A stretch of 64,000 nucleotides of DNA from a virus, in IMG/VR virus record IMGVR_UViG_3300045988_118866, positions 10,950 through 74,949 of that record; one strand, written 5' to 3'. The notes beneath the pieces are model-generated. The model was not told the DNA's origin and ran no database searches. It saw nothing but the letters and a program-made list of their open reading frames with translations. Shown here in pieces: positions 18,411 through 53,518 of the stretch (the stretch's first letter is position 1; each line of letters starts with the position of its first letter). The position numbers were made by a program, and so were the translations under genes.

Positions 18411-18571
18411 TAGAAATTTAAGTTTGAAATTGATAACTTAAAATTTATAATATATTTGGTTTTACTCTTTTGGAAATGATTATTGAGAAAACTATTTTTA
18501 AATGGTGTTACTTCTAATTATACAAAAGAGGTAACACCATTTTTTTTATTTCTTCAAAGAAAGGAGATAAC

Positions 18572-20088
18572 ATGGCAAAGATATATAAAGGGCGCATATC
18601 TCAAAAACACGATACTAGTGAAAATTGGGAAAAAGCTGGTAATTTTGTCCCTTTAGCAGGCGAGTTAATTATATATGATGATTTGCGTAAAATAAAAATC
18701 GGCACAGGATCTACTAAAATAAAAGATTTACCTTTTGAAGCAATTGATGGAGCTTAGATTAGCGGTGGTATTAATTCTATTGGCAATGAACCAACTCACG
18801 TTGCTATAAATCCTGCTATTAATGGCGCCGGATTTGAAAGATTAAAAGGTTCTACAATTAAAATTTATTATGGCGATTATGAAATGCCTTTTAATACAAC
18901 TGCCATTGATAGTCTTTTTGACGGTAAAGCAAGAACTTATATTAACTTTTGCGGAGGATTTGCTGGGGATTTTGATTGGAATAGCTCTAAAACTTATCCT
19001 GCTGGAGCTTATGTAAAAGTTAATAATATTTGGTATAAAGCAATTAGTGAAAATACTAATATAAATCCAATATCTAATAATACTATTTGGGAAAATGTTT
19101 AGTCTCTCGCCGGAGAAGATTATTCATCTTATATAAATCTTAATGATATTCCAATAATAATAGATATTACTTTTTCAAATAGTATTAAATTTGAAAATTC
19201 TTTAGCATTATATTGGCGCGCTTATGGGTAGAATCCTAATTATATTAAAGTTGAAAAATATCGAGAAAATTATGGATGGTATACAGTTGAAGAATAGAAA
19301 GATATTCATTAGAATTAGACCGTAACGAATATCTATTTAGCAAATAATAATCCTCCTTAGAAACAATATCCCGGTAACGAAAATAAAATGCGTATTACTA
19401 TGTATGCACGTCCTAAGCAGGCTTGGTTTGCGCTTATTCAATTAGCTATAACTGGTATTTATGGCGGAATTGATGGTACTCTTTTAAATAGAGGTGGGGA
19501 AGTATCACTCCTTATAAAAAAAATGCTGCGGATTTAGGTTCAAGTAGTCTACCTTGGAATTATATTTATGCTTCTGGATACAAAGGCGAATCAGGTGATA
19601 TGACTTCTTCTTTTACTTAGGGATCGATAAGAAATAATCTTACTTCTGGAGATACTTTGCGCACAATTTTTGGAAAGATTTCTAAATGGTTCGCAGATTT
19701 GGGTTCATTAGCTTTTAAAAATAAAATCTCAAAAGACGATTTAGATAGTGATTTATAGAATAATTTAAGTAGTAGTAAGACTTTAATAGTTCAAGGATCA
19801 TACGTCGGAAACTGTACTAAAGGGACAGCAGGAACTTATTCTCAAAAAATAGAAACAGGGTTTCCTGTTAAAGGTGTTATTCTTTGCTCAGATACTTCTA
19901 AATCAATAAATAATAACGCTACAAATCAAGCATTTATGTTAAATAAAGCTATGTCTTCCCCATTTTTTGAAAGTTACGATGCAGGTTTTATTATTAAAGA
20001 AGTTTCTACACCTGGCACTAAAGGCAATTATACTTATACAGGTTTTAATTATTTAGGGACTGAATATTATTTTATAGCTTTTGGATAA
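18572..20088 (+). CDS. tail fiber protein; requires a -1 frame change at the A8 tract 19516-19523 (plus 5 TAG)
   Basis: The incoming frame with the motif KAGNFVPLAGELIIYDDLRKIKIGTGSTKIKDLPF runs to TGA at 19595. The -1 frame is open from 19489 to TAA 20086 and reads ADLGSSSLPWNYIYASGY. The two frames overlap only across AAAAAAAA. Confidence 0.55.
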
Positions 20089-20939: not shown

Positions 20940-21506
20940 ATGGCAATTCCAAAAGTAATAAATATATTACGTAAAGGTGTAGAATATAACACTGAAACAT
21001 ATTGGAACGCGCAAACTGATTATATTCCAGCGTCAGGATCAATTATTGTTTATACTGATTTAAATAAAATGAAAATTGGCGATGGCACAACTAAACTCGG
21101 AGATTTAAATTTTATTTCTGTACCAGCCGAAGGAAATAGCGGAGACGCTCTTGTAAAAAATGAAAAAGGTAGCAAATGGGAAACTCCCGTAGAAGCTACT
21201 TTAGTTGAATTACCTATTGGAACTTTAAAAAGTGATGGTACAACAATTACAGCGATTACTACAAAATATTTAACAACTACTTTAACTGTAGCTAATTGGA
21301 GTAATAAAACTTATAGTTTTGAAACAACTTATCCAAATAGTTAGTATGATATTACTGTCTTTATTGCTCCAACTGCTACTACTGCTGAATATGATGCTTT
21401 TTCTAATGCTAAAATTTGCGGTGATGCCACTCAAAACATAATTAAGGCTATTGGCACTGTTCCTACTATTGCTATTCCAATTATTATAAAGGTAGTAAGC
21501 AAATGA
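20940..21506 (+). CDS. tail fiber N-terminal-motif paralog (1 TAG)
   Basis: Motif ASGSIIVYTDLNKMKIGDGTTKLGDLNF. TGA at 21504-21506 overlaps the ATG of the next gene (ATGA). Confidence 0.6.
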
Positions 21507-23204: not shown

Positions 23205-24329
23205 ATGGCTAATAAAACATATCAAGGTCGTATAGTCCAAAAGCATGATAATTCAGCAAATTGGGTGAAAGCGACTAATTTTATTCCTTTAAAAGGCGAA
23301 ATTATCATCTATGATGATTTAAATAAAATAAAAATCGGCGATGGAACAACTAAAGTTAATGATTTAGATTTTAATTCTTGTCTTCCTGACGGCGGAACCG
23401 CTGGTGATGCTTTAGTAAAAGACACAGATGGCGGAAAATGGGAAACTCCTGTTGAAGCTACTCTTGTTTCTCTCCCAGCTGGTATTTTAAAAAGTGATGG
23501 TACTACTATTACCGCGGCAACCGCAGGTATTGATTATCACTCAGTTACTAATAAATATACTTTCACCGTATCTGATTCTACACAATCAACATTCACTATT
23601 CCTTTTGATTTCAACAATGATTCTGGTACATTAACTGCTTATTATAATGGCGTAATGATGAAAGAAACTGATAACTATACTATCAGTAATAATACTCTTA
23701 CATTAGTAGATTGGACTGCTAAAAAAGGTGATTATCTTACAGTAATGGGTATTGAGGGCGCTGCCTCTGTTAATGTTGATGCTAAACTCGCTTTAATCCA
23801 ATAGGCAGTTGATAAAGCTAGTTCTGATATGGATTCTAAGGTGGCTTCCGCATCTACTGACATTAATAATAAAGTAAGTAGTGCTATTAAGCAAATTGAT
23901 GATAAATTAGCCACTATTCCTGACGATGTAGAGCAAGCAGTCTACAAAAATAAATCTAATATAATGACCGCCAGCGGTAAAATTACTATGGATAGTAGTT
24001 ATACTCCTTCCGCGAATGGCGATGTAGTTACCAAAAAATATGTAGATGATAGTGCTATTGGATTATTTTCAAGTACTAAAAATGGTATTGTTCCAAAATC
24101 AGACGGTAGCACTACTAAATACTTGCGCGCGGACGGTTCTTGGTCTACAATAGATAAAACTCCTGTAATTGGAACTACTACTGACTACGCTATTTATATT
24201 GGATCTACTAAACCTGCATCTGGAACTACGCCATTGCTTTGGGTTGATACTACAAGTTCTACGGGTTATTTAAAATATAGAACTTCTACTACTGGCACTT
24301 GGACCACTGTTCCTGTTGCTTGGTCTTAA
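23205..24329 (+). CDS. tail fiber protein (1 TAG), N-motif plus C-terminal LLWVDTTSSTGYLKY module
   Basis: Motif KGEIIIYDDLNKIKIGDGTTKVNDLDF. The C-terminal module is shared with the next gene. Confidence 0.7.
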
Positions 24330-45645: not shown

Positions 45646-47031
45646 ATGCCCGCTATTATTTCATTTATCCTTCCGGCAATTCCCGTAGTTCTTATTGCGC
45701 TACTGGTAATTTTCATTTTCCTCAATGGTTATGTAAAGGCTCCGCCTGATATGGCTTATATCATCAGTGGTGTCCATAAGAAACCTCGAATTCTTGTTGG
45801 TAAAGCTGGCTTGAAGATTCCTTTCTTCGAACGTTTGGATAAGCTTGCTCTCGGAGCTATTCAAATTGATGTAAAGACTGGATCTGCGGTTCCTACTGCC
45901 GAATACATTAACGTTCGTGTTGATTCTACAGTTTCCGTTCGTGTGGGTAGAGATCCGGAAATGATTGCGCTCGCCGCTCAGAACTTCCTTAACGTAGGCC
46001 GTGATGAAATTTCTCGTAAGATTAACGACCTTCTTGAGGGTAATATTCGTGAGATCGTCGGTCAGATGAAGTTGACCGATATGGTTAGCGATCGTAAGCT
46101 GTTTAGCGAGAAAGTTCAAGAGAACGCAGTTCCTGATCTGGCACGTTATGGTCTTGAGCTGATTACCTTTAACGTTCAGAACTTCTCTGATGATAATGAT
46201 GTTATCACTAACCTTGGTATTGATAATGTCGCTCAGATTAGCAAGAACGCGGCGATCGCTAAGTCCAATGCGGAACGTGAGATTGAGGTCGCTCGTGCGG
46301 AAAATGCTAAGCAGTCTAATGACGCTAAAGTTAAGGCCGCTGAGGAAATCGCAATCCGCAATAACGATCTTGCTATCAAGCAGGCTCAGTTGAAGCAGGA
46401 AGCTGATACTAAGAAAGCTCAGGCAGAGGCAGCCGCTGGTATTGAGTCTGAAAATCAGCGTAAACTCAAGGATGTTGCCGCAACTAATGCGAATATTGCA
46501 AAGGCTGAGCGTGAAGCTGAACTGAAGCAGAAAGAAATCGAGCTTAAGGAATACGAACTGACTGCATTGGTTCGTAAGCAGGCTGATGCTGATAAGTATG
46601 CTGCGGAAAAGGCGGCTGAAGCAGACCTGATTCGTCGTCAGAAAGATGCTGAAGCTAAGGCTTATGAGATCGAGCAGGAAGCAAAAGCTATGCGTGCTCG
46701 TGCTGAAGCAGAAAAGTTCGCAGCCGAACAGAAAGCTGCTGGTATTGCGGCCGTTGGTGAAGCCGAAGCCACAGCAATCGACAAGAAAGCAGAAGCACAG
46801 AAGAAGATGGGTGAAGCTTCTATCATTGAAATGTATTTCAATGCAATGCCTCAAATCGTGGCAAACGCGGCAGCCCCTCTTACTAATGTGGATAAAATCG
46901 TCCAGTATGGCGATGGAAACTCTGCTCGTCTTGTAAAGGATGTTATGGGTTCCGCAAACCAGGTCATTGAAGCAATGTCTGAAAATGGCATTGACATCAA
47001 AGAGATGCTTACAAAGGCATTGAATAAGTAA
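45646..47031 (+). CDS. flotillin/SPFH (band-7) family protein with N-terminal TM helix and long coiled coil
   Basis: RBS AAGGAGAA. SPFH core then A/E/K-rich flotillin-type repeats. Codon usage suggests high expression. Confidence 0.75.
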   Translation: MPAIISFILPAIPVVLIALLVIFIFLNGYVKAPPDMAYIISGVHKKPRILVGKAGLKIPFFERLDKLALGAIQIDVKTGSAVPTAEYINVRVDSTVSVRVGRDPEMIALAAQNFLNVGRDEISRKINDLLEGNIREIVGQMKLTDMVSDRKLFSEKVQENAVPDLARYGLELITFNVQNFSDDNDVITNLGIDNVAQISKNAAIAKSNAEREIEVARAENAKQSNDAKVKAAEEIAIRNNDLAIKQAQLKQEADTKKAQAEAAAGIESENQRKLKDVAATNANIAKAEREAELKQKEIELKEYELTALVRKQADADKYAAEKAAEADLIRRQKDAEAKAYEIEQEAKAMRARAEAEKFAAEQKAAGIAAVGEAEATAIDKKAEAQKKMGEASIIEMYFNAMPQIVANAAAPLTNVDKIVQYGDGNSARLVKDVMGSANQVIEAMSENGIDIKEMLTKALNK

Positions 47032-47035
47032 TTTA

Positions 47036-47075
47036 AATAGACACTATGATTTATTTCATAGTGTCTATTTTTTTA
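47036..47075 (+). terminator. rho-independent terminator after flotillin gene
   Basis: aatagacactatgatttatttcatagtgtctattttttt. Confidence 0.7.
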
Positions 47076-47205
47076 TCCCTGATTAACGCGATCGGCCGTA
47101 GTTCCAATCACTCACACCCATAGAAATTTTTTCAGCAAAATCCTTAAAAGGCCACTTTCCATTAAAAATAAGCCCAATATTTATAAATAAATTAGGTAAA
47201 TAAAA

Positions 47206-47240
47206 TTTGCGAAATTGAAAAAATTTTGCTATAATTTATA
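47206..47240 (+). promoter_or_regulatory. promoter-like TTGCGA-N18-TATAAT upstream of 47261
   Basis: ttgcgaaattgaaaaaattttgctataat. Confidence 0.35.
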
Positions 47241-47260
47241 TTAAAGAAAGGATGAATAAA

Positions 47261-47713
47261 ATGTCTCTATCCGAAAAAGATGTTTTACTTTTAAAAATTA
47301 AAGTTTCTAAAGAATTAGAAGATGGTACTTTATTCGACGATAACGAATTAATTTCATAGTTAAATGAAATTTCTGATCTAGAGAATCAAGAAACTATTGC
47401 TATAATTTTTTATAATATTCAAAATTTTGAAATTCTTAGAAATTTAGAATAGATTAATAAATTATAGGATTTTATTAACAAAATTGATTATTTAAAAAAT
47501 AATATTCAAGTTTCAACAGCTATTGATTATCTATTCTTAGAAATAAAATTAGATTCAGATACAAAAGAGAATAATATAGAATTCTTTAAAAATTACAAAA
47601 TAAAAGAAAATAATTCTTTAAGATATTATTCTTTATTAAGCAGTATATTTATTAAATATCAATTATTTAATAAATTAGATGAATTGGAAAATATTATAAA
47701 AAATTTAACATAA
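47261..47713 (+). CDS. hypothetical protein (150 aa, 4 in-frame TAG)
   Basis: ATG 47261 after a promoter-like box. Open to TAA 47711-47713 only with TAG read-through. Confidence 0.45.
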
Positions 47714-47727
47714 GGAGGACATAATGT

Positions 47728-48432
47728 ATGGCTAATTGTTCTACAACTGGATGTGTTGGATCTTGTTTTGTAAGTTGTAGTAATGGATGCGACCATGGAT
47801 GTGGTGGAAATTGTTCTCTATGTGAAACTTGTGGAACAAGTGTTTGTCAAGGAAGTTGCAGAGGAGACTGTGATGGAAGTTGCTCTGGCTGTGGCGGAGC
47901 CTGTAGTAATAGCTGTTCGGGCGATTGTGAAGGAAAATGCTCTGGATGTGGCGGCTCCTGTAGCACTGACTGTACTGGCAGCTGTTCCGGTCAATGCTCT
48001 GGATGTAGTGCTGCCTGTCGTACTGACTGTACTGGCAGCTGTTCCGGTCAATGCTCTGGATGTAGTGCTAGTTGTAGAAATGATTGTTCTGCTTGTACCG
48101 GCAATTGTTCTGGAGCTTGCGATAATGGTTGTTCTACTTCAGCAAATGTAAATCTTTATAATTCTATTAGTTTAAGAATTGTTTTATATGCTGTTGATGT
48201 TGCTAATATTTATACTATGTTAAACAAAGAATTATCTAGACGTGGTTATAGTACTCTATCTACAAACGTTTCTTCCAATAGCAAAGTTAATACAACTTTA
48301 AAAAATGAAATATTTACAAACATTTCTAAAATGCAATCCACTTCTTATAGTGGAGATACTTGTAAAAAATCCGAAATGCAAAAAGCAATCACTGCTTTAA
48401 AAACTTTATATTCTAAAATTTTAAAAAGTTAA
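47728..48432 (+). CDS. extremely Cys-rich repeat protein (about 45 Cys in first 140 aa; candidate radical-SAM substrate)
   Basis: RBS AAGGAGGACATAATGT. CSGxC and CTGxC repeats. Contains a 57-bp tandem duplication. Confidence 0.65.
   Translation: MANCSTTGCVGSCFVSCSNGCDHGCGGNCSLCETCGTSVCQGSCRGDCDGSCSGCGGACSNSCSGDCEGKCSGCGGSCSTDCTGSCSGQCSGCSAACRTDCTGSCSGQCSGCSASCRNDCSACTGNCSGACDNGCSTSANVNLYNSISLRIVLYAVDVANIYTMLNKELSRRGYSTLSTNVSSNSKVNTTLKNEIFTNISKMQSTSYSGDTCKKSEMQKAITALKTLYSKILKS
47965..48078 (+). repeat. 57-bp direct tandem duplication inside Cys-rich gene
   Basis: actgactgtactggcagctgttccggtcaatgctctggatgtagtgct appears twice, differing only in the last 9 nt. Confidence 0.8.
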
Positions 48433-48458
48433 TTTATAAAGATAAAAAGGAGAAAAAT

Positions 48459-48767
48459 ATGAAAACAATTACAGTAAATGCTAATAATACAGATTTAAAT
48501 AATAAATTAGAACGAGCTTATCAAGATCTTCTCGCTCGTCAAAGTATTATTACATATATGATGAATAGTACTGCTTTTAATAATATAGAAAGTGAAAATT
48601 ATAAAAAATATCATCAAGAATATGTTGAAAAATTTATTGAATATGATAAAATAAGAAATAAAGTTGGAAAATATTACGATTTAGAAAAATATGGTAATAA
48701 TGCTTATTGGAGTATTGATTTTTCTACAAAAACTATTACAGTAACAATTAATGATGATGCTCAATGA
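48459..48767 (+). CDS. hypothetical protein (102 aa) between precursor and maturase
   Basis: RBS AAAGGAG. Its stop overlaps the start of the next gene (ATGA). Confidence 0.5.
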   Translation: MKTITVNANNTDLNNKLERAYQDLLARQSIITYMMNSTAFNNIESENYKKYHQEYVEKFIEYDKIRNKVGKYYDLEKYGNNAYWSIDFSTKTITVTINDDAQ

Positions 48768-50056
48768 GACGTAAATTTGAATAGTATAGTGATACAATTC
48801 AAAGACTATATCCAGAATTATGGAAAAAAGAAAATGACAAAATTTTTGATATAACTTTACAAGTTACTGATTCATGTAATTTGAGATGCAGTTATTGTTA
48901 TCAAACTTGTAAAAAAAATCATTTAATGGATTTTGAAACAGCTAAAAAATATATTGATATGCTAATAGTAAATCCTTAGAAAAATGATTATTTTGACCCA
49001 GATAATATCATAGGATTAGTTTTTGATTTTATTGGCGGAGAACCCTTTTTAAATATAGATTTAATAGATAAAATAATGGATTATACTATTTCTAAATTAA
49101 TTGAAATGAATAGCTCGTTAATTTATTTTACAAGATTTTTAATTTGCACTAATGGAACATTATATTTTGATCCAAAAGTACAAAAATTTTTGGATAAATA
49201 TAAACAATGGTTGTCTGTTTCTATTAGTATTGATGGAAATAAAGAATTACACGATGCTTGTAGAAAATTTCCTGATGGCTCTGGTAGTTATGATATTGTA
49301 GTAAAAGCGATAAAAGACTGGCAAGAAAAAACTGGAGAATACCCTTGCTCAAAAATTACCTTATCTCCTAATAATGTTATGTATTTAAATGACGCGGTAA
49401 AAGCTCTTTTAGACATAGGATTTACTTCTATATTAGGCAATGTAATTTTTGAAAAAGGTTGGACTTTAGAGCACGCTAAAATTTATTATAAGCAATTACA
49501 AGAATTAGGACAATACCTCCTTGATAATAATTTAGAAGAGGATATATATATTTCATTTTTTGAATATCCCGATTCAAAATTATTTAGACCAAAAGATTGG
49601 ACTAATAAAGATGAATTATAGAACTGGTGTGGCGGAAATGGGGCTATGATTGCTATGAATTATACAGGTAATTTATATCCTTGTTTACGCTATATGGAAG
49701 ATGCTTTAGGCGATTCTGTCCCTCCTCTTATTGTAGGAAATGTAAATAAAAATGAAATAGCGACAACAGAAGAACAAAAACAATTAACAAAAGAATTGAA
49801 AGCAATTAATTCTTATAACCAATCTTCTGATGAATGTCGTGAATGTCCTATCGCTACTGGCTGTGCTTGGTGTCAAGCATATAATTATCAAGAAACTGGC
49901 GTTCTTAACAAAAGAGTTACTTATATTTGTCCTATGCATAAAGCTCGTGCTCTTGCTAATATTGAATTTTGGAATAAATATTATAAAAAACATAATATAG
50001 ATGAAGAATTTCCAAATAATATGAAGCAAGAATGGATAGATGAATTATTAAATTAA
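48764..50056 (+). CDS. radical SAM / SPASM-domain maturase (anSME-like), 3 in-frame TAG
   Basis: One frame joins the 49076 and 49646 track ORFs. Motifs CNLRCSYC (CX3CX2C), GGEPF, and SPASM cysteines CRECPIATGCAWC...YICPMH. Confidence 0.7.
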
Positions 50057-50059
50057 AAT

Positions 50060-50098
50060 AAAGGCGAAAGTATTATACTTTCGCCTTTATTTTTTTTT
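50060..50098 (+). terminator. rho-independent terminator after radical SAM gene
   Basis: aaaggcgaaagtattatactttcgcctttatttttttt. Confidence 0.7.
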
Positions 50099-50160
50099 GC
50101 TTTTTAATAATTTTTATGTTAATATATTTATAGAAATAGATAGAAAGGAGTTCTACCACT

Positions 50161-50598
50161 TTGAAAAAAGAACCTTTATTTAGTTATAATCCTGAATCAG
50201 GCGAAGCTTCTTGTTTAATTGAGGACAAAGATGGTAATATTATTTATGGTATTGCTAAATGCCACCCTGACGATATGGATATGGCAAATGAAAAAACTGG
50301 ATGTAATTTTGCTTATAAACGAGCTTATATTAAAGTTTTACAAGCATATAAAAAAGAATTAAAAATTCAACTTGGAGCTTTAAATCAATTATATTATTCA
50401 ATAAATAGAAGCAAATATTTTAATCCTAAATCTTATGAAAATAAAATGCTTCAACGACAAATTCGCCAAAAACAAGAAGATATTAGTTATGTAAATGACT
50501 CTATTAAAAATGCTAAAGACGAATTAAATTATATCATAAAAGAAAAAGATAAATTTTACCAGAGTATTCGTAAACATCGTAATGAGGCCAAGAATTAA
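50161..50598 (+). CDS. hypothetical protein (TTG start), paralog of 26204 gene
   Basis: RBS GAAAGGAG 9 nt upstream of TTG. Confidence 0.45.
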   Translation: MKKEPLFSYNPESGEASCLIEDKDGNIIYGIAKCHPDDMDMANEKTGCNFAYKRAYIKVLQAYKKELKIQLGALNQLYYSINRSKYFNPKSYENKMLQRQIRQKQEDISYVNDSIKNAKDELNYIIKEKDKFYQSIRKHRNEAKN

Positions 50599-50890
50599 AA
50601 ATAAAAATATATAAATTTTTATAGATGTTAAGAGGTAAAAATCTTCAAATCCCTAATGAAAGGGTGAATATTTATTTTAACATTTATATTCGGAATAATA
50701 TTTATCGCATTTTTATACCCAATAGGAGATAGTTTAGTTAGTTTATTGACAACTTTTCTCGAATTGGTAAAGGGAAAATTAACTCTAAAAATAGCAGAGT
50801 ATAATTCCCAAATCGAAAAATTAGCAACTGACACAAAAACTTTGGTTCACGCGGTCGGATTTGCTATACCAAACATAGAAGAGGAAGAAG

Positions 50891-52153
50891 ATGATGAGTA
50901 CGAAGATGTATAAATTTTATGATACTTGTAGTTTACTGATGGCAGTTGATACATTTCTCCAAGAGAAAGAATATATACCTGTTATATCTTCTATTACTTT
51001 AAAAGAATTAGAAAATATAAAAACATCATCAAATAAAGATGCTGATGTTAAATATTCAGCTCGTAAAGTATTACATAAATTAAATGAAAACCCTGATAAT
51101 TATATTATCCAACTATTTAAATTAGACGGATTAAAAATAATTGAAGATTCTAACCTTCCAATTACTGACGATAGTAAAATTTTATCTACCGCAATTGAAT
51201 TTAAATTAGCTCATCCAAATACTATATTTATTACTAATGATTTATCATTAAAAGCAATGGCAAATCTTTTCTTCGATAAAAACCATATTCAAAGCATAGA
51301 TGAAGAATTAATTGATGAATATAAAGGATATGTGGAAATCACAATGTCCGACGCGGAAATGGCTGATTTCTATTCTAACCAATATGAAAATGTTTATAAT
51401 TTACATATTAATGAATATTTAATTATAAAAGATAAAGATAATAGTATCGTTGATAAAGTATGTTATACAGGTGATGGATATCGACCCATATCATTTGGTA
51501 ATTTTGATTCTACTCAATTCGGAAAAGTAAAACCAATAAAAGATGACCCATATCAGGCTTTATTTGCCGATAGTCTTATTAACAATACTATTACTATGGT
51601 TCGTGGCCCCGCAGGATCAGGTAAAACTTATTTAAGCTTAGCTTTTTTAATGAATCAATTTGAGCGCGGGCGCATTGATAAAATTATTGTATTTTGTAAT
51701 ACGATTGCCACTAAAAATTCTGCGAAACTAGGTTTTTATCCTGGCACTCGTGATGAAAAATTACTTGATAGCCAAATCGGTAATCTTTTAATTAGTAAAT
51801 TTGGCGGTCGTTTAGCTGTTGAGCGCATGATTGAAAACGAGCAATTAGTTCTTTTACCATTAAGTGATATTCGTGGTTATGATACTACTGGAATGAAAGC
51901 AGGTATTTATATTTCTGAAGCACAAAATATGGATATTTCACTTATGAAATTGACTTTACAACGTATCGGTGAAGATGGTATTTGTATCATTGATGGCGAT
52001 GATAAAACTCAAGTTGATGATATTGCATTCGCAGGAGCTAATAACGGTATGCGTCGTGCTTCTAAAGTATTTAGAGGATCAGATGTATATGGCGAAATTG
52101 AATTAAAACAAATTCATCGTTCTAAAATTGCGGCATTAGCTGAACATATGTAA
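50891..52153 (+). CDS. PIN-domain + PhoH-like ATPase (YlaK family)
   Basis: Walker A MVRGPAGSGKT. N-terminal PIN-like domain. Confidence 0.75.
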   Translation: MMSTKMYKFYDTCSLLMAVDTFLQEKEYIPVISSITLKELENIKTSSNKDADVKYSARKVLHKLNENPDNYIIQLFKLDGLKIIEDSNLPITDDSKILSTAIEFKLAHPNTIFITNDLSLKAMANLFFDKNHIQSIDEELIDEYKGYVEITMSDAEMADFYSNQYENVYNLHINEYLIIKDKDNSIVDKVCYTGDGYRPISFGNFDSTQFGKVKPIKDDPYQALFADSLINNTITMVRGPAGSGKTYLSLAFLMNQFERGRIDKIIVFCNTIATKNSAKLGFYPGTRDEKLLDSQIGNLLISKFGGRLAVERMIENEQLVLLPLSDIRGYDTTGMKAGIYISEAQNMDISLMKLTLQRIGEDGICIIDGDDKTQVDDIAFAGANNGMRRASKVFRGSDVYGEIELKQIHRSKIAALAEHM

Positions 52154-52216: not shown

Positions 52217-53518
52217 ATGACTAACATTGAAATAACTTGGAATTATTTGTATAAACGAATAAAAAACCCTTATGGAACGGCCGGGCTAATGGGAAACTTA
52301 AAAGCTGAATCAAATTTTAATCCAAAAAATCTTCAAAATAGTTTTGAAAAGACACTTGGATTAAATGATGAATAGTATACAAAACAAGTAGATAATGGTA
52401 AATATACTAATTTCATTTATGATAAAGCTGGGTATGGTTTAGCTCAATGGACCTATTGGAGTCTTAAAAAACAATTATATGATTTTACAAAAAAGAAAAA
52501 TACTTCAATAGGAAACTTAAATACACAACTTGAATTTTTAATTTATCAACTTTCTACATATTATCCTACCGTTTGGAATACTTTAATAAATTGTAAAGAT
52601 ATATAGACTGCTTCAAATATAGTTTTAACATAGTTTGAACGACCAAAAGATTAGAGTTTAAAAATCCAATAGTAGAGATTATATTATGGAGTTGAAATAT
52701 ATGATCAATTTATAGGAAAAGGTGAAGATATGAAAATTGTAGATAATTTAACAACATCTAATTATCAAAAAGGTAATAATAGAAAAATAAAATATATTGT
52801 AATACATTATTTTGGTTCTTTGGGGACGGCAAAAAATATTAGTAATTATTTCAAAAACCCTGTCGCTAAATCATCAGCTCATTATTGTGTTGATGAAAAA
52901 GATATTATTTATCGTAGTGTTAAAGATGAAGATATTGCTTGGCATTGTGGCACAAGAAAAGGGTATAAACATCCTGAATGTAGAAATGCTAATTCTATCG
53001 GAATTGAAGTAAGACCCTGTAAAATAAATAAATCTAATATTGTAGCCAGTGATACTGATTGGTATTTTGATCCAAGAGCGTTAGAAAATACAATACAATT
53101 AGTAAAACAATTAATGTAGAAATATAATATACCTGCGGACCACGTTATTCGCCACTATGATGTAACTGGTAAATTATGTCCTCGTCCATTATGTGGAACT
53201 GACATGAATAGTTATTATAGAACAAGTGGCGATTACCAATGGTAGTTATTTAAACAAAAAATTGGTGATAATATAAATATTAATGAGGAGGATGAAGATA
53301 TGACTCAAGATAAATTTAATGAAATGATGGAAGTTTATTTAAATCAACAAGCCGAAAAAAATGCAAGTTCTTGGTCTGATACGGAAAGAACTTGGGCTGA
53401 AAGTAAAGGATATATTAAAGGCGATAATTTAAATCGTAAAATGTATAAAAAATTTATGACTCGTGAAGAAATGATTGTAGTTCTTTATAGAATTATGAAA
53501 GATAAAGGGTTGGTGTAA
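52217..53518 (+). CDS. endolysin: phage lysozyme-like domain + N-acetylmuramoyl-L-alanine amidase (Amidase_2/PGRP) domain; 8 in-frame TAG
   Basis: RBS GAAAGGAGG. GTAGLMGNLKAESNF...YGLAQWTYW, then KYIVIHY...SAHYCVDE...DIAWHCG. It joins the 52730 and 53300 track ORFs. The last 72 codons (53300-53518) have their own RBS and could be a separate gene if TAG 53242 terminates. Confidence 0.6.

Follow-up and report, generated by a model that had tools for sequence, protein, structure and literature searches.

A predicted CXXX-repeat protein modification cassette in a TAG-recoded phage

We describe a gene cassette in a 64,000-nucleotide stretch of viral DNA (IMG/VR record IMGVR_UViG_3300045988_118866, positions 10,950 to 74,949; the whole stretch is called the window below, and coordinates count from its first letter). 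The window is a gut phage fragment (GC content, 34%; 25 tRNA genes between 1233 and 28705) in which many long reading frames are open only with TAG readthrough. The cassette encodes a Cys-repeat protein, a small accessory protein, and a radical S-adenosylmethionine (SAM)/SPASM maturase, and lies in a four-gene unit on the + strand (47071-50093) with a terminator-like hairpin at each end. Its genes and their parts are as follows:

47728..48432, + strand, open reading frame (ORF) of the CXXX-repeat protein, 234 amino acids (aa), predicted substrate
47737..48132, + strand, Cys-repeat region, residues 4-135, 35 Cys; no predicted fold (AlphaFold predicted local distance difference test [pLDDT], ~35)
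47936..48069, + strand, 57-bp (19-aa) tandem repeat, 2.4 copies, 92% match
48139..48429, + strand, C-terminal helical domain (D-domain), residues 138-234; four helices by AlphaFold (pLDDT, 75-87); conserved E168, R171, and R172
48459..48767, + strand, accessory protein, 102 aa, putative divergent member of TIGR04116 (CXXX_rpt_assoc)
48764..50056, + strand, radical SAM/SPASM maturase, 430 aa, TIGR04115 member
48875..48898, + strand, radical SAM cluster motif CX3CX2C (C38-X3-C42-X2-C45)
49628..49930, + strand, SPASM auxiliary-cluster cysteines, C289 to C389

The maturase belongs to the CXXX-repeat-target family and is a radical SAM/SPASM enzyme with three clusters. It matched NCBIfam TIGR04115 ("radical SAM peptide maturase, CXXX-repeat target family"; rSAM_Cxxx_rpt) with 401.6 bits (curated cut-off, 350), residues 30 to 402 aligning with profile positions 4 to 359 of 359. 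The SPASM set is complete (C289-X12-G302-X4-C307, C358-X2-C361-X5-C367-X2-C370, C389), and the radical SAM and SPASM motif residues are invariant among 24 homologues. A sequence-only reading of the window, made by a model before this analysis, had proposed a 430-aa radical SAM enzyme with a CX3CX2C motif and a C-terminal SPASM domain; the motifs confirm it, the frame being complete only with TAG readthrough. The protein is ~50% identical to thousands of metagenomic proteins and matches proteins that NCBI names CXXX-repeat target maturase in Caproicibacterium and Anaerosporobacter. A tblastn search of 50,697 phage genomes gave only unannotated human faecal phage fragments (36% identity) and, at 25-28%, a radical SAM enzyme of another kind from jumbo phages of Erwinia and Salmonella, which leaves no cultured phage with virion proteomics to draw on.

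The product of the first cassette gene, which is preceded by the ribosome-binding site AAGGAGGA, has 36 Cys, 35 of them in residues 4-135, where Cys makes up 26% of the sequence; the sequence-only reading had put the count too high, at about 45. The repeat unit is C-[S/D/T/R]-G-[S/D/x], and the 34 gaps between successive Cys are of size 4 (25 gaps), 3 (7 gaps), or 5 (2 gaps), a regularity reached by none of 20,000 shuffles. The 57-bp tandem duplication reported earlier is present at the position listed above. Proteins of sister phages (P0121-P0130; L015-L020) are 196, 215, 234, and 253 aa long, in steps of exactly 19 aa, so that repeat copy number, read from protein lengths, appears to be polymorphic between strains. 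Searches with the 234-aa protein gave no match in Pfam or NCBIfam, including the 18-residue TIGR04114 repeat model and any metallothionein family, and PHROGs gave phrog_6085 (function not known) alone. Among relatives, P0149 reached 16.7 bits against TIGR04114 (cut-off, 20) and P0132 weakly matched TIGR04118, a short Cys-rich family in NCBIfam of peptides that are ribosomally synthesised and then modified post-translationally (RiPPs); Pfam PF27846 is attached to some Cys-rich homologues (P0132, P0134, P0149, and others) in the protein collection. We found 84 homologues, in which the N-terminal repeat passes through a conserved junction, C-[D/N]-N-[G/A]-C-[T/S], into a C-terminal domain of ~100 aa with an invariant E..RR.

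This C-terminal D-domain is restricted to the CXXX-repeat protein family. Its profile had 333 matches among 1.84 billion representatives, and all matches inspected were whole or fragmentary CXXX-repeat proteins; none was a protein without the Cys repeat, the kind of occurrence that would mark a general fibre anchor. A fold-library search with the domain gave no match. Most other cassettes have the reverse order, with the D-domain N-terminal and followed by 100 to 400 residues of CXXX repeats with up to 98 Cys. The N-terminal version opens with M-I-T-A-x-x-L-x-x-L-K-x-K-V-K-x-E-M-x-R-R and leads into the repeats through a conserved junction, S-S-S-C-R-G-A-C-T-G-L-C; it is homologous to the C-terminal version (hhalign, 98.2%; expect value [E], 5.9e-14; 87 columns).

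The 102-aa protein is probably a divergent TIGR04116 member, an assignment made via intermediate sequences. Its direct match to TIGR04116 ("CXXX repeat peptide modification system protein") was weak (18.1 bits against a cut-off of 50; E, 2e-3), although nearly full length. Within the fetched loci, jackhmmer connected it with ORFs of 166 loci; in 142 cases the ORF sits directly upstream of the maturase, and 16 of 49 such ORFs matched TIGR04116 (best E, 5.7e-30). The sequence-only reading had taken this gene for a partner, possibly with a PqqD-like recognition element; the first part stands through the accessory family, and the second was ruled out on fold, as a confident model has a helical hairpin on a three-stranded sheet and not the winged-helix fold of such an element (a three-stranded sheet, then three helices). 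With TIGR04115 above its cut-off and the link to TIGR04116, the central proposal of that reading, that maturase, Cys-repeat substrate, and small partner form one module, holds.

Three in-frame TAG codons lie in the maturase gene (48782, 48977, and 49619; codons 7, 72, and 286). Gln stands opposite codon 7 in 16 and opposite codon 286 in 14 of 23 aligned homologues, and a sister phage (L004) has TAG in its Cys-rich gene where the window has CAA (Gln), so TAG means Gln here. Recoded TAGs had been claimed for both genes, which is right for the maturase and wrong for the Cys-rich gene (47728-48432), where the window has no in-frame TAG. Two further features bear on expression:

47252..47713, + strand, 153-aa ORF, first gene of the unit, 3 in-frame TAG
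10186..10258, + strand, phage tRNA with CUA anticodon, TAG suppressor, needed for the maturase and the first ORF

The endolysin gene (52217-53518; Phage_lysozyme2 and Amidase_2 in a sister phage) is broken by eight in-frame TAG, which is consistent with recoding gating lysis. Because maturase, first ORF, and endolysin all need TAG suppression and the phage carries the tRNA-CUA, late expression of the unit, which the sequence-only reading had suggested, is plausible, and the cassette offers a clear case in which TAG-to-Gln recoding would gate an enzyme-substrate pair. A tRNA with a UCA anticodon (11537-11616) could read TGA, though TGA still ends the accessory gene; a tRNA-Cys lies at 28629-28705.

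Pattern scans that covered ~600 candidate stretches each from viral contigs and reference genomes confirmed at least 525 and at least 569 relatives, respectively; those in reference genomes are almost all from Clostridia. The maturase is always paired with the small accessory and almost always with a Cys-repeat protein. Where the maturase shares at least 37% identity, a Cys-repeat ORF (14 to 98 Cys) lies next to it at nearly all loci. In Caproicibacterium, the gene order is baseplate J, a Mu gp48-like protein, two short fibre-like proteins, the CXXX protein, accessory, maturase, a 105-aa ORF, a GH25 lysin, and lysis-module ORFs; a related contig (L003) has a Phage_holin_4_1 holin in its lysis module. 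Neighbours were surveyed for one representative of each of 44 maturase clusters, three genes to each side. Upstream, the commonest were Mu Gp48 (8), Baseplate_J (6), tail-collar fibre (4), Mtd_N (4), DUF2612 (3), P2 gpI (2), and Dit (2); downstream, they were amidases, GH25, SH3 domains, and holins. Judged with a small seed panel, tail or lysis hallmarks occur in the flanks of 29 of the 44 clusters and of 31 of 41 genome loci. PHROGs placed a tail fibre or baseplate gene immediately upstream in four of six probed clusters (L058, L101, L055, and L135, not L010 or L011). The cassette is overwhelmingly phage-borne and usually sits at the boundary of tail-fibre and lysis genes, a tail link that is a property of the family and not of the window locus. 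No peptidase, transporter, or immunity gene was found in or beside the cassette, in the window or in the surveyed loci.

One group of relatives (the L058 cluster) consists of 28 siphophage contigs, typically 30 to 60 kb, in which Dit, a minor tail protein, and an 800-aa structural protein precede the CXXX protein. That protein has, in 24 of these 28 contigs, one of two alternative C-terminal globular domains (~190 or 136 aa), either fused or encoded as the next ORF. These domains follow a conserved linker, AQAFGAVV..ED.TVDLIANG, on otherwise near-identical CXXX proteins (e.g., L062, 3984-5633; L063, 4179-5633), and the swapping is a mosaic pattern typical of receptor-binding proteins.

Three side observations concern relatives. 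Some cassettes (L010, 5137-6612; L101, 6325-7662) have several tandem Cys-repeat genes, namely one D-domain gene with few Cys and then one or two near-pure CXXX genes that lack the D-domain, with up to 64 Cys in 265 aa. A subfamily of radical SAM proteins of ~711 aa, mostly in Clostridium and other Clostridia (L142, L145, L147, L150, L153-L157, L159, L161-L163, L165, L168), has an extra Cys-containing C-terminal domain and the accessory gene directly downstream; no Cys-repeat ORF was detected within 4 kb of it. Caproicibacterium CP135996 (L002, 854248-867567) has two copies of the cassette, each in a prophage tail module of its own; a ParE/YoeB-Phd toxin-antitoxin pair lies beside one and RnlA/RnlB beside the other. 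Further cultured candidate lysogens with the cassette are Eubacterium pyruvativorans i6, Neglectibacter timonensis SN17, and Desnuesiella massiliensis mt10.

Compared with known systems, the window is closest to the CXXX system of NCBIfam/TIGRFAMs (TIGR04114/04115/04116), which is itself defined by computation only, with no experiment found in the literature. The two share a maturase above the TIGR04115 cut-off, an accessory gene directly upstream, and an adjacent target of tandem C-x-x-x units. The window departs from that system in its divergent accessory, in the missing match to the TIGR04114 repeat model, in having the helical domain at the C terminus rather than the N terminus, and in its setting in a large TAG-recoded phage. 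Among solved structures, the nearest is CteB, a SCIFF maturase (PDB 5wgg; E, 3.8e-32; CteB residues 88-442), with a radical SAM core and a SPASM domain with two auxiliary clusters; since residue 88 of CteB is the first to be aligned, the window maturase lacks CteB's N-terminal recognition domain. Membership in the SCIFF class was rejected on score (TIGR03974; 134 bits, cut-off 425) and on the substrate, which has 36 Cys in 234 aa and not six in ~45 residues. QhpD, the enzyme of quinohemoprotein amine dehydrogenase, is a SPASM enzyme that installs several Cys thioethers in a protein subunit, QhpC, that stays a protein. The window maturase matched the QhpD type with 107 bits, far below the cut-off of 453, and differs in that the QhpD context is not phage and QhpC gets only a few links, against the dozens predicted in the window protein. 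The anaerobic sulfatase maturases (TIGR03942) share the radical SAM/SPASM architecture and the lack of an N-terminal recognition domain; membership was rejected, with a score of 77 bits (cut-off, 349) and no sulfatase in the neighbourhood, so the objection that the sequence-only reading had named against its own proposal, clustering with these enzymes, does not apply. The second-best family match was PapB (189 bits), which makes freyrasin, a ranthipeptide in which Cys sulfur is joined to the Asp beta-carbon in repeated CX3D motifs; one SPASM enzyme thereby makes many links along a repeated Cys motif (PMC10177961; PMC12373016). PapB-type membership was likewise rejected (cut-off, 340): Cys recurs every fourth position, position i+4 being Cys in 25 of 34 units, with no CX3D/E acceptor pattern, and the window substrate is 5 to 10 times longer and keeps a folded domain.

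Taken together, we think it probable that the unit is a CXXX-repeat modification system of the TIGR04114/04115/04116 type that makes thioether cross-links at many sites, with a product that stays a protein and is probably a fibre-type or fibre-associated part of the virion. Translation would come late, once the phage tRNA-CUA suppresses TAG. The accessory would stand in for the N-terminal recognition domain of related maturases and might dock the helical D-domain of the substrate. The enzyme would then form 5'-deoxyadenosyl radicals and take hydrogen from a neighbouring residue, and that carbon would be joined to a Cys sulfur held on an auxiliary cluster, as substrate Cys is bound to the auxiliary cluster during cross-linking by PapB and Tte1186 (PMC10177961). 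Repeated along ~35 CXXX units, such linking would give a densely thioether-cross-linked rod with the D-domain still attached, a modified protein and not a cleaved, exported peptide. That the product stays a protein is suggested by the lack of a protease or transporter gene in the unit, the length of the family's substrates (176 to 574 aa), and the globular C-terminal domains after the linker. A fibre-type or fibre-associated virion component is the most likely role because the cassette lies at the tail-fibre end of the structural module in most relatives; the role is drawn from those relatives and not from the window phage. This structural reading is the best fit to context and domain swapping.

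Several points weigh against this account. The thioether chemistry is assigned through homology, since we found no paper in the literature that characterises any member of the TIGR04115 family. Neither the D-domain nor the extra C-terminal domains matched Pfam, PHROG, the PDB, or a known fibre, and Foldseek of the 234-aa model against the PDB and viral structures gave nothing better than an E of 2, the Cys-repeat part of the model being unusable at its pLDDT. Some relatives have Cys-repeat genes without a D-domain. Cargo genes, too, are often found where tail genes meet lysis genes, so location by itself does not prove a structural role, and the window cassette itself lies among auxiliary genes, ~23 kb from the tail-fibre-like genes at ~14 to 24 kb. 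The sequence-only reading had held that its proposal would fail if the Cys-rich protein turned out to be a homologue of a structural spike or knob protein. That is partly in play: the cassettes of relatives lie in tail-fibre/lysis modules, and the substrate resembles a modified protein more than a leader-core peptide. Pfam, PHROG, PDB, and fold searches matched the protein to no known fibre domain.

The alternative that fares best, though we consider it unlikely, is a classical RiPP, in which the D-domain is a cleaved leader or follower and the cross-linked Cys-rich core is freed on lysis to act as a bacteriocin, a signal, or a peptide against competitors, to the benefit of the phage or lysogen. 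The maturase family is named a peptide maturase, the products of its closest relatives are ranthipeptides and SCIFF peptides, NCBIfam has a family of short Cys-rich RiPPs (TIGR04118) that P0132 weakly matches, and the D-domain occurs at either end, like leader and follower peptides; large, domain-sized RiPP leaders are known (NHLP, Nif11). The unit also resembles a cargo gene in having a promoter-like site and terminators of its own:

47035..47070, + strand, intrinsic-terminator-like hairpin, 15-bp stem then T run; ends the preceding Band_7 gene; upstream boundary of the unit
47207..47235, + strand, promoter-like site, TTGCGA-17-TATAAT preceded by TG; a match to consensus only, such sites being in total no more frequent than expected from shuffling
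50055..50093, + strand, intrinsic-terminator-like hairpin, 18-bp stem then T run; downstream boundary of the unit

Against a RiPP stand the missing peptidase, transporter, and immunity genes at the window cassette and the surveyed loci, cores of 130 to 400 residues with up to 98 Cys (far above known RiPP core size), the extra globular C-terminal domains on some substrates, and the TAG recoding, which ties expression to the late lytic phase.

Returning to a cross-linked protein as the favoured product, the chemistry might differ from thioether formation, with Cys oxidised to formylglycine, residues epimerised, or a different link made along the repeat. Anaerobic sulfatase maturases, cyclophane-forming enzymes, and other SPASM enzymes are among the weaker matches of the maturase, and no assay of any TIGR04115 member was found; the low score of the sulfatase maturase model, the absence of a nearby sulfatase, and the fact that the top characterised families (PapB, SCIFF maturase, QhpD) and the nearest structure, CteB, are all Cys-thioether formers make another chemistry quite improbable. 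Metallothionein-like binding of metal or iron-sulfur clusters by the Cys repeats, with the radical SAM enzyme doing something other than cross-linking Cys, would suit the regular spacing, the high Cys content, and a repeat that alone has no predicted fold, as expected of an apo metal-binding protein, but is very improbable given the lack of any metallothionein or ferredoxin match (Pfam, NCBIfam) and a strict pairing with an enzyme whose nearest relatives employ the Cys of their substrates as cross-link donor; metallothionein identity of the 234-aa protein was rejected on the same searches.

A broader form of the favoured cross-linked-protein reading, that the whole TIGR04115 family is a system for modifying phage structural proteins, with fibre shafts of Cys-every-fourth-residue repeats stapled by dozens of thioethers in hundreds of phages and prophages of gut Clostridia, is possible, but we hold it to be doubtful. 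If true, it would describe a covalently laddered, protease-resistant fibre with exchangeable receptor-binding tips, stapled before assembly. Virions would thereby gain a new class of covalent cross-link made by an enzyme, and no known radical SAM substrate would have as many sites. A cross-linked fibre would also add radical SAM chemistry to the ways in which viruses harden their particles and provide a natural enzyme that puts tens of thioethers into one chain; were the product a released peptide instead, Cys-rich RiPPs would have a large, untapped source in the phages of gut anaerobes. A phage-borne cassette at the tail/lysis boundary, with a substrate of 200 to 570 residues and a private helical domain, makes this a virion-protein question before a small-antibiotic one. 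The cassette type was already defined by computation; for years, annotation databases have carried it as a predicted system for peptide maturation. To our knowledge, from the literature searched, the association of the family with phages and tail modules, the D-domain and its permutation, and the exchangeable C-terminal domains are apparently new, though curator notes of NCBIfam or PF27846 may record some of this.

As to the setting of the unit, the first ORF is confined to this phage lineage and had no match in Pfam or PHROG searches, and the start of the maturase gene overlaps the stop of the accessory gene as ATGA. The DNA of positions 47000-51000 had no match among the 50,697 deposited phage genomes. 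Flanking the cassette are a gene for a 461-aa Band_7/SPFH protein, which has a long helical region rich in Ala, Lys, and Glu (45646-47031), and a gene for a PIN-PhoH protein (50891-52153), neither with an internal in-frame TAG, and the endolysin gene is 2 kb downstream. The lineage is one of large phages, with sister contigs from 47 to 201 kb. Paralogous tail-fibre-like genes with a common N-terminal domain lie between 13863 and 24329 (14105-15595, 16009-16518, 17825-18325, 18572-19603, 20940-21506, and 23205-24329); most have at least one in-frame TAG (up to 8 in the 18518-19603 frame), and 14105-15595 has none.

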